Part shown: positions 505 to 1,473 of the stretch, one piece after another
Numbering within the stretch: position 1 is the first letter of the stretch
Layout of the letters: each line of letters starts with the position of its first letter
Source: a plasmid
Reading direction: 5' to 3' (one strand)
Length of the DNA stretch: 2,028 bases
NCBI RefSeq assembly: GCF_058153355.1
Contig: NZ_JBLWLY010000003.1
The notes under the pieces: model-generated
The model's input: the letters and a program-made list of their open reading frames with translations, nothing else
Told to the model about the DNA's origin: nothing
Database searches by the model: none
Program-made: the position numbers and the translations under genes

Positions 505-1473
505 CTAACGCTCCATACCACCCATGCCACGCGATCGCGTCTGTCGCTGTTTTTCACGTTCAATACGCTGCTGTTTTTCCTTTTCCTGGTTTTGCTGCTT
601 AAACCGCTGAGCCATCATCAGGATTTCGGTCATCTGCTCTCTGGAAAGCCCCTTAAAAGGCTCTGTAACGCTCTGTAGGCGTTTCTGCTGCGCATCCATA
701 GTCTTCTGTAGCTCACGCGCTCTTTTTGCGTTCTGGGCGCTCTGAGAGGCCATAGCGATGGTTCCTGCAAAGCCATCGTTCACTGCGTGGCTTAGACGTT
801 TGGCTATGGCTGCCTGATCTTCCACGTCTTTGGTGAAAATGCCCTTCCGCAATACACGCGGCTCCAGCGCCTCCGGCGAGATCGATACCTGGCTACGGGT
901 GCCACGGTTTATCGATTCGTAGTAGTGCTGAACTGTCTGATGCGTGGCGCGGCTTCCCTCGATGCCGCGCTCAAGACCCAGTTTTTTTACTGATTCAGCG
1001 TAGGTGCTCTGATCTTCACGCATCTTTGACCGCCCGCCAATAAACTCTTTCGCGGACAGCCGTCCATCCTGCGTCAATGGCACCACGAACGCAGACAGGT
1101 GCGGGGTGGCCTCGTCCCGGTGAACCACCGCCGCCACAACACGATCCTTCCCGTATTTCTTCTCCAGCCATTGCTCAGAGCGGGCGAAAAACTCCGCCTG
1201 CTGCCGTGGTGTGGCCTCTTTCCACCACTCAGGGCTTGCTGTCATAACGTATTCAACGGCCAGTACCGCATCTTTACGGCGTTTTTCCGGCAGCAGCTCC
1301 CGCACACGCCCCATTGCCTGATCCGTTGATTTGGACACAGAGCAGTAGTTTTCTGGTGTCCGTTCAGCGTTAGCGTTCGGCGTCTCACGCTCTCGGTAGC
1401 AGTGCTGCAACGCGCTGGCCACGCTTCCCATTCCCGTCAGCTTTTTGCAGCGCATTATCGCGTAGTTCGCCAT
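505..1473 (-). CDS. Plasmid mobilization relaxase, Mob_Pre / MobV family
   Basis: Minus-strand ORF with stop TAG (complement of 505-507). The N-terminus MANYAIMRCKKLTGMGSVASALQHCYRERETPNANAERTPENY matches the Mob_Pre N-terminal signature (YA-x-R-x-KK ... H-x-x-RE ... N-x-N). An internal HRDEATPH segment resembles the metal-binding H-x-DE-x-x-PH motif of this family. The C-terminal ~70 residues are Q/K/E/R-rich and coiled-coil-like, as in MobM-type relaxases. I chose the start at ATG 1471-1473 because a six-G run (complement of 1477-1482) lies 3 nt upstream as a Shine-Dalgarno; the ORF track's longer start at 1492-1494 has no visible RBS. Confidence 0.85.
   Translation of the reverse strand: MANYAIMRCKKLTGMGSVASALQHCYRERETPNANAERTPENYCSVSKSTDQAMGRVRELLPEKRRKDAVLAVEYVMTASPEWWKEATPRQQAEFFARSEQWLEKKYGKDRVVAAVVHRDEATPHLSAFVVPLTQDGRLSAKEFIGGRSKMREDQSTYAESVKKLGLERGIEGSRATHQTVQHYYESINRGTRSQVSISPEALEPRVLRKGIFTKDVEDQAAIAKRLSHAVNDGFAGTIAMASQSAQNAKRARELQKTMDAQQKRLQSVTEPFKGLSREQMTEILMMAQRFKQQNQEKEKQQRIEREKQRQTRSRGMGGMER

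Follow-up and report, generated by a model that had tools for sequence, protein, structure and literature searches.

The window analysed here, 2,028 bases in length, is a complete circular plasmid that carries a mobV gene, and the feature in question is the tail of the relaxase encoded by that gene. The tail, rich in glutamine, lysine, glutamate and arginine (Q/K/E/R), is the end of a clade-specific, uncharacterised C-terminal domain (amino acids (aa) 186-322) of a proteobacterial MobV relaxase. A sequence-only reading of the window had labelled the tail a coiled coil; our analysis found that this label fits only in part, namely the region flanking a turn and not the Q/K/E/R-rich region. We tentatively interpret the tail as the part of the relaxase that docks on a helper plasmid's coupling protein or type IV secretion system, an interpretation held at somewhat less than even probability, and a docking tail appears more likely than a classic dimerising coiled coil. 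Feature coordinates are collected in Table 1.

The MobV relaxase and its C-terminal domain

The protein bearing the tail is a MobV relaxase, as the sequence-only reading had proposed, scoring 154 bits against Pfam PF01076 (cut-off 25.5) and 162 bits against NCBIfam NF041497 (cut-off 100), with a PDB sequence match to 4lvi (MobM N199) at E = 2e-15. Foldseek comparison with 4lvl/4lvi (E = 4e-13; template-modelling (TM) score 0.77-0.79 of the target) indicated that the MobM relaxase fold is present. Motif I (HxxR) was found as H24-C-Y-R27, which aligned to H-N-E-R of MobM with its catalytic histidine (MobM H22), and both H24 and R27 were unchanged across 16 diverse relatives. Motif III, defined for MobV relaxases as HxDExxPHxH (bioRxiv preprint 10.1101/2022.12.05.519187), reads H118-R-D-E-A-T-P-H125-L-S127 in this protein, where serine (S127; nucleotides (nt) 1093-1095) takes the place of the third histidine. 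This position is also occupied by residues other than histidine in most clade relatives and the histidine is kept in only one of the 16 aligned sequences (P0187).

The 137-aa domain that follows the catalytic domain, small and predicted to be all-helical, had no match in Pfam, NCBIfam, PDB sequences (searched with the single sequence or a profile) or PDB folds. Exhaustive HMMER searching of 1.84 billion cluster representatives recovered 74 proteins with this domain at E <= 1e-3, and the full-length matches (311-434 aa) were all MobV relaxases. The domain is therefore considered clade-specific and uncharacterised, and no functional study of it was found in the literature. Its carriers are encoded by small plasmids of Salmonella, Aeromonas, Pseudomonas, Providencia and Bartonella and also occur in metagenomes.

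Minus-strand translation of positions 508-720 gave exactly the last 71 residues of MobV (ARELQK...RSRGMGGMER), as first delimited, and these make up the distal two-thirds of the C-terminal domain; the peptide quoted in the earlier reading began eight residues further upstream (QSAQNAKR, nt 721-744) than those coordinates allow. The strong compositional bias and the helical character noted at the time were both borne out, the former directly and the latter by structure prediction. Q, K, E and R account for 55% of the 71 residues in comparison to 30% of the remaining protein, and shuffling the whole protein produced a 71-residue window this rich in Q/K/E/R in just 18 of 5000 trials. The bias is strongest within aa 281-322, with values of up to 64-67% in windows of 30 residues, and the entropy of the last 35 residues was 3.13 bits while the minimum of any other 35-residue window was 3.49 bits. 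AlphaFold2 models were made both of the full-length protein (56-sequence alignment) and of the isolated C-terminal domain (38 sequences), and in each of them helices were predicted at aa 236-273 and 278-316, with the turn KGLS between the two. The predicted local distance difference test score (pLDDT) was mostly above 90 up to approximately aa 310 and confidence was low from approximately aa 311, with aa 317-322 non-helical and pLDDT below 50 at residues 320-322.

The tail is net-positive, with a charge of +7 over the 71 residues and +4 over both the last 20 and the last 30. This could reflect a basic nucleic-acid-binding arm, in which the Arg/Lys/Gln-rich helix contacts DNA of the origin of transfer (oriT) or the transferred strand and either stabilises the relaxosome or autoregulates mob. 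Such an arm would account for the charge and for the Arg-rich helix, and weak profile matches to basic extensions of ribosomal proteins point the same way; these matches were not significant, however (E > 0.1), MobM's N-terminal domain binds and nicks oriT by itself (PMC3105389), and the conserved C-terminal motif described below is better explained by recognition of a free C-terminus. We consider this explanation improbable.

At the nucleotide level no tandem repeats were found in 508-720; the only repeated sequence there, the 10-nt GCTGTTTTTC, occurs in direct orientation at 546 and 570 and reflects EKQ codons. A terminator-like site on the plus strand at 531-547 was at chance level (2 found, 1.9 expected), and no Rfam match was found across the whole 2,028-bp plasmid. 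Separately, a 125-aa metagenome fragment (P0127) carries a copy of the tail in which many Q, K and R residues are replaced by E or G (e.g. ...FKEEKEEKEKEEGIEGEKEGERGWGGMGGMEG), as though many first codon positions had become G; this may be an artefact of sequencing or assembly.

Hydrophobic seams beside a conserved turn

Heptad analysis of aa 252-276 (approximately 3.5 heptads) showed hydrophobic residues at seven of eight a/d positions, a result equalled in 0 of 2000 shuffles, and the residues of this seam are L255, M259, Q262, L266, V269, F273 and L276. Beyond the turn, aa 278-298 contain a hydrophobic cluster (M281, I284, L285, M286, M287, A288 and F291) that shows no clean register in the single sequence. 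Family-wide, hydrophobic columns were found at 255, 259, 262, 266, 269, 273 and 276 before the turn and at 281, 284/285, 288, 291, N295 and 298 after it, and the columns from 281 to 298 continue the 3-4 spacing. A canonical coiled coil would have an unbroken a/d seam over at least four heptads; here the family-wide seam is carried on across a turn. The region aa 252-298 can thus be read as a candidate antiparallel alpha-hairpin or short coiled coil, with matched seams of approximately three heptads predicted on each side. The most Q/K/E/R-rich part of the tail, aa 299-316, has one hydrophobic residue among 18, therefore a coiled-coil core is impossible there, and its column conservation is 0.2-0.5. 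No run of leucines at 7-residue spacing, as in a leucine zipper, was found in the tail. A single alpha-helix of the ER/K type was also examined and rejected, as only two opposite-charge i to i+4 pairs occur in 25 residues, the net charge is +5 and the sequence is Q-rich.

The seams raise the alternative of a dimerisation domain, in which the seams of two molecules form a parallel coiled coil, or two hairpins a four-helix bundle, and the relaxase dimer serves a second strand-transfer reaction. The significant seam at aa 252-276, the family-wide 3-4 spacing up to residue 298 and a conserved asparagine at a core-like position are what such a domain would be expected to show, and full-length MobM is a dimer while its N199 form is a monomer (PMC3105389). 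The Q/K/E/R-rich part nevertheless lacks core residues, the seams are of equal length and flank a 4-residue turn, as fits an intramolecular hairpin, and AlphaFold2 folded the monomer at pLDDT >90 with no partner present. Furthermore, the nucleophile of MobM is a histidine, and a dimer may not be required. We regard dimerisation as a less likely yet serious alternative; it is compatible with docking and both roles could coexist.

The dimerisation role as first put forward was borrowed from MobM of pMV158, the MOBV1 prototype, and is not supported in that form. The two proteins are alike in possessing a non-catalytic, highly helical region after the Mob_Pre domain. In MobM this C-terminal moiety is needed for transfer and dimerisation and not for nicking, its last 18 residues are essential, a Leu zipper at 317-338 has been proposed only, and contact with the coupling protein was "tentatively proposed" (PMC3105389). 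The C-terminal part of MobM, however, comprises 295 aa in comparison to 137 aa here, and its residues 200-494 have no sequence similarity to the present domain (BLASTP E = 0.97). The end of MobM, ...KKAIEKSLF, also lacks the G-x-x-R pattern, and nothing in the present tail corresponds to the MobM zipper. Because the C-terminal region, its end and the zipper are all unlike, function can be transferred from MobM by analogy only.

Terminal motif, tail exchange and a proposed docking role

Across relatives of 25-55% identity, conservation was found in the EPFxGLS turn (G275 74%, L276 91%), at Q280 and A288 (91%) and in a QEN motif (N295, 74%). The 13-35 residues that follow QEN have little positional conservation but remain alike in charge (net +3 to +7) and in Q/K/E/R content (40-79%). 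Conservation returns at the extreme C-terminus as a motif of the form [R/K]-G-hydrophobic-[S/E]-R-COOH: among aligned relatives, glycine occupies position -4 in 83%, a hydrophobic residue position -3 in 75%, and the last residue is arginine in 81%. A C-terminal arginine was present in 28 of 47 distant representatives (shuffled last 30 residues: mean 7.7, maximum 17) and the pattern G-x(1-3)-R$ in 17 of the 47 (null mean 1.4, maximum 6). In several relatives the second helix is followed by approximately 100 additional residues, and the C-terminus of several of them keeps a glycine-containing end of a similar kind.

Relaxases at least 88% identical overall were found to carry three types of tail: type A ending in ...RSRGMGGMER (this plasmid), type B in ...RQKTDRGISR and type C in ...GHKTDRGMSR. 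Length also varies, with an extra QRQ in P0108. In a comparison of this plasmid with the type-B plasmid pWP3-W18-ESBL-02_9 (L004), codons 1-282 gave non-synonymous (dN) values of 0.002-0.005 and synonymous (dS) values of 0.11-0.17, whereas in codons 283-322 synonymous differences were saturated (proportion of synonymous differences, pS, 0.78) and dN reached 0.45. This sharp discontinuity indicates a recombination breakpoint near codon 283 and therefore a different history for the last 40 codons, for which the GC content (~0.50) is below that of the rest of mob. Charge, composition and terminal motif are kept in all three tail types. The stop codon of mob in the type-B plasmid overlaps with the start codon (ATGA; L004 1911-1914) of a vbhA-family antitoxin gene, so that translation initiation of that gene there places a further constraint on the end of the tail; in this plasmid the mob tail instead faces the convergent rep gene.

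These results bear on the earlier suggestion that tail composition could reveal the helper system, which was not sustained: the same net charge and Q/K/E/R content are generic across relatives of 25-50% identity, and three different tails occur on almost identical relaxases. They could also be interpreted to mean that the end is of low complexity, largely free of constraint and left behind by recombination at a module junction, its role being just to end the protein. Between genes that are near-identical elsewhere, the last 40 codons show saturated synonymous sites and a dN of 0.45; these values, the three tail types with their QRQ length polymorphism, the lower GC content and the overlap of the type-B stop codon with the next gene would all be in keeping with relaxed constraint. 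Composition, charge, length range and terminal motif are, however, conserved far above shuffled expectation and all three swapped tails keep the terminal motif; because of this conservation in relatives we consider an unconstrained tail distinctly unlikely.

A C-terminal domain homologue in large IncF plasmids was considered as a helper-encoded partner and rejected, as it is a truncated mob remnant. In the IncF plasmid pSCU-318-1 (L003 6001-6330) the remnant encodes 109 aa of the C-terminal domain only, ending in ...SDRSRGR, and it is placed between blaTEM-1 and sul2-strAB in large IncF resistance plasmids, where it is annotated as a "mobilization domain protein".

Under the docking interpretation, the C-terminal domain would be dispensable for nicking and would serve to contact other proteins, handing the relaxase-DNA adduct over to the helper's coupling protein and type IV secretion system. 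The hairpin (aa 252-298) would form a scaffold that may also self-associate, the polar stretch at aa 299-316 would be a spacer tolerant of sequence change, and the positively charged, non-helical end with its terminal motif would be the recognised signal. The last 40 codons could then be swapped by recombination with neighbouring modules and function kept, because only composition, charge and the last few residues would be constrained.

The catalytic domain is complete without the tail, which is consistent with this proposal. In MobM the N-terminal 199 residues are enough for DNA binding and nicking, and deletion of the last 18 or 30 codons abolished transfer (PMC3105389). A short, positively charged signal at the C-terminus is found in most substrates of type IV secretion, and alpha-proteobacterial relaxases use a helical domain and a positive tail as the signal (PMC6509941). 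Docking is favoured on account of this type IV signal rule, the alpha-proteobacterial signals and the MobM deletions together with the conservation pattern described above. The predicted helices and turn, the seams and the tail-swap signature also fit it. One parallel is the BID domain with its positive tail, the signal of alpha-proteobacterial relaxases and Bartonella effectors. There too a relaxase ends in a helical domain of ~100-140 aa and a short net-positive tail, for which contact with the coupling protein has been proposed (PMC6509941). The positive tail of this bipartite signal is present here, at +4 (last 20 and last 30 residues) and +7 (71 residues) in this protein and +3 to +7 in relatives, and the antiparallel four-helix bundle with a hook (~100 aa) that characterises BID was not found in the domain. 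VirB/D4 substrates with short, unstructured, positively charged C-termini are reportedly recognised by VirD4-type coupling proteins, as Vergunst et al. 2005 are said to have described; the Arg-rich VirB/D4 signals differ from the end seen here in their consensus, R-x7-R-x-R-x-R.

Several points weigh against docking. The characterised translocation signals of relaxases (TraI TSA/TSB and MobA) are internal and not C-terminal. PDB fold and profile searches matched neither BID nor any other known signal domain, and a BID signal had to be added to the Mob of a Bartonella cryptic plasmid for efficient VirB/D4 transfer (PMC5572225). The related Mob of Bartonella pKM19s lacks the G-x-x-R end, and mimicry of the C-terminus of the IncX relaxase TaxC was rejected since TaxC does not share the terminal motif.

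A more specific and doubtful proposal is that the polar, net-positive stretch with its terminal motif constitutes an undescribed C-terminal recruitment signal. By this signal MOBV2-like relaxases of small proteobacterial plasmids would attach to the VirD4-type coupling proteins that MPF_T helpers (IncP, IncX and the like) provide, and swaps of tail type would retune helper range. Combined with the IncX oriT core described below, this would provide two independent mobilisation routes.

The IncX oriT core and the plasmid

Directly beyond mob lies an IncX (R6K-type) oriT core. Positions 461-498 were identical in 36 of 38 bases to both inverted oriT copies of the IncX3 plasmid NZ_MK033580.1. One of these copies precedes taxA(ddp1)-taxC by 62 bp, and the other is flanked by ddp3 and the gene next to pir; these are the positions described for the two IncX oriTs. 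Two oriTs in long inverted repeats are a hallmark of IncX plasmids (PMC3402527). Only the core is common to this plasmid and IncX/R6K, however, as the flanking long inverted repeat, taxA, taxC and ddp3 are absent here. The distribution of tail DNA showed that most matching plasmids share just 37-45 bp beyond the mob stop codon. A sensitive search found the core in 2522 plasmids, of which 1555 are conjugative and mostly carry two copies each, and the remainder (~970 non-conjugative small plasmids) are typed "non-mobilizable" (637) or "mobilizable" (330). In ColpVC-type and other small plasmids that are unrelated in other respects the core is identical, with sharp boundaries. It contains TATCCTG|C, which we take to be the MOBP nick-region consensus.

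The core suggests a second transfer route, used in trans through IncX helpers, in addition to the plasmid's own MobV, and on sequence grounds an IncX-type oriT core would be a better clue to the helper than tail composition. In the one host checked (strain SWYH.B349aT) no IncX plasmid was found; besides the present plasmid this host has a conjugative IncF plasmid and a MOBP plasmid of 6 kb. The stretch between the convergent rep and mob genes also contains, at 449-479, an 11-bp inverted repeat, AATGCCGCAAA / TTTGCGGCGTT, on either side of the palindrome TGACGTCA. The IncX oriT core includes the right arm of this repeat, which could serve as an oriT hairpin, a bidirectional terminator or both.

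Upstream of mob, an inverted repeat with 8-bp arms and a 3-nt spacer, CACTATCA-AGA-TGATAGTG, was observed at 1540-1558, 67 bp from the mob start. Since 8-bp arms with a 3-nt spacer are typical of MOBV oriTs (PMC3632715), this repeat is a candidate cognate oriT. The arrangement resembles that of pBBR1 Mob and other MOBV2-type relaxases, which likewise have a single mob gene and an upstream oriT of 8-bp inverted repeats with a 3-nt spacer (PMC3632715). The C-terminal domain is common to the Mobs of Pseudomonas, Salmonella, Aeromonas and Bartonella plasmids (35-55% identity). We assume that pBBR1 Mob also belongs to this C-terminal-domain family, in view of the vector-like distribution of cluster P0140. 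Another enterobacterial MOBV plasmid pair, pIGMS31/32, is mobilised by RK2 (PMC6112013).

Table 1. Coordinates of the features discussed, numbered within the 2,028-bp window.
Feature	Position	Strand	Basis or remark
mobV, 322 aa + stop	505-1473	-	open reading frame list; identical to RefSeq WP_000024818.1; RefSeq annotation of NZ_CP091776.1
Mob_Pre / MobV catalytic domain, aa 1-185	919-1473	-	Pfam, NCBIfam, PDB, Foldseek
Clade-specific C-terminal domain, aa 186-322 (137 aa)	508-918	-	no annotation in any family library
Two hydrophobic seams beside the turn, aa 252-298	580-720	-	heptad test, family columns, AlphaFold2 helices
KGLS turn, aa 274-277	643-654	-	within the conserved EPFxGLS motif; helix broken here in both AlphaFold2 models
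Exchangeable tail cassette, last 40 codons, aa 283-322	508-627	-	breakpoint near codon 283
Polar, net-positive, low-complexity helical extension EKQQRIEREKQRQTRSRG, aa 299-316	526-579	-	varies in sequence and length
Terminal motif [R/K]-G-hydrophobic-[S/E]-R-COOH, aa 314-322 SRGMGGMER	508-534	-	column conservation, shuffle test
IncX (R6K-type) oriT core GACGTCACTTTGCGGCGTTAGCCCTATCCTGCATCGCA	461-498 (core 460-496)	+	10 bp beyond the last sense codon of mob
Winged-helix protein, 146 aa	1-441	+	annotated MarR-family

The plasmid is 100% identical to E. coli pB349aT_3 (NZ_CP091776.1) and to approximately 15 other plasmids of 2028-2033 bp from E. coli, Shigella and Klebsiella, and 573 PLSDB records share some sequence with it. 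Its gene content comprises two convergent genes with 63 bp between them. The 146-aa winged-helix protein is probably the replication initiator (Rep) of the plasmid; its helix-turn-helix matches were all sub-threshold and included the N-terminal domain of phage replication protein O. Just upstream of this rep-like gene and across the circular junction, two tandem 21-bp copies at 1966-2010, each with the palindrome GTTACCAATAATGGTAAC, appear iteron-like or operator-like. The non-coding 0.37 kb that separates the candidate oriT from these iteron-like copies contains, at 1694-1735, a perfect 10-bp inverted repeat, TCGTCAAGGG / CCCTTGACGA, whose loop is 22 nt long.

The stop codon of mobV is at 505-507 and its start is ambiguous. 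In RefSeq the gene starts with the ATG at 1473, and 4 nt upstream of this codon is a GGGGGG run; an alternative in-frame ATG at 1494 would add 7 residues, and a 16-aa N-terminal extension, MRSPDWLDVRQNEGVS, is annotated on many close relatives of the relaxase (P0013 and others).

In summary, the feature is the end of an unannotated domain in a well-known kind of protein, encoded by an already annotated gene on a very common sequenced plasmid. The terminal motif, the swapping of tails and the adjacent IncX oriT core are new observations of modest weight, and the practical importance of the tail is likewise modest. Small cryptic MobV plasmids such as this one are very common in Enterobacteriaceae, and they can pass between hosts and recombine with other mobile elements, as the mob remnant in the IncF resistance region exemplifies. 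If the terminal end is a docking signal, it would provide a simple sequence handle for predicting the helper range of MOBV-class plasmids. In that case the "positively charged C-terminus" rule for type IV substrates would also reach a class of relaxases whose only studied member is MobM.

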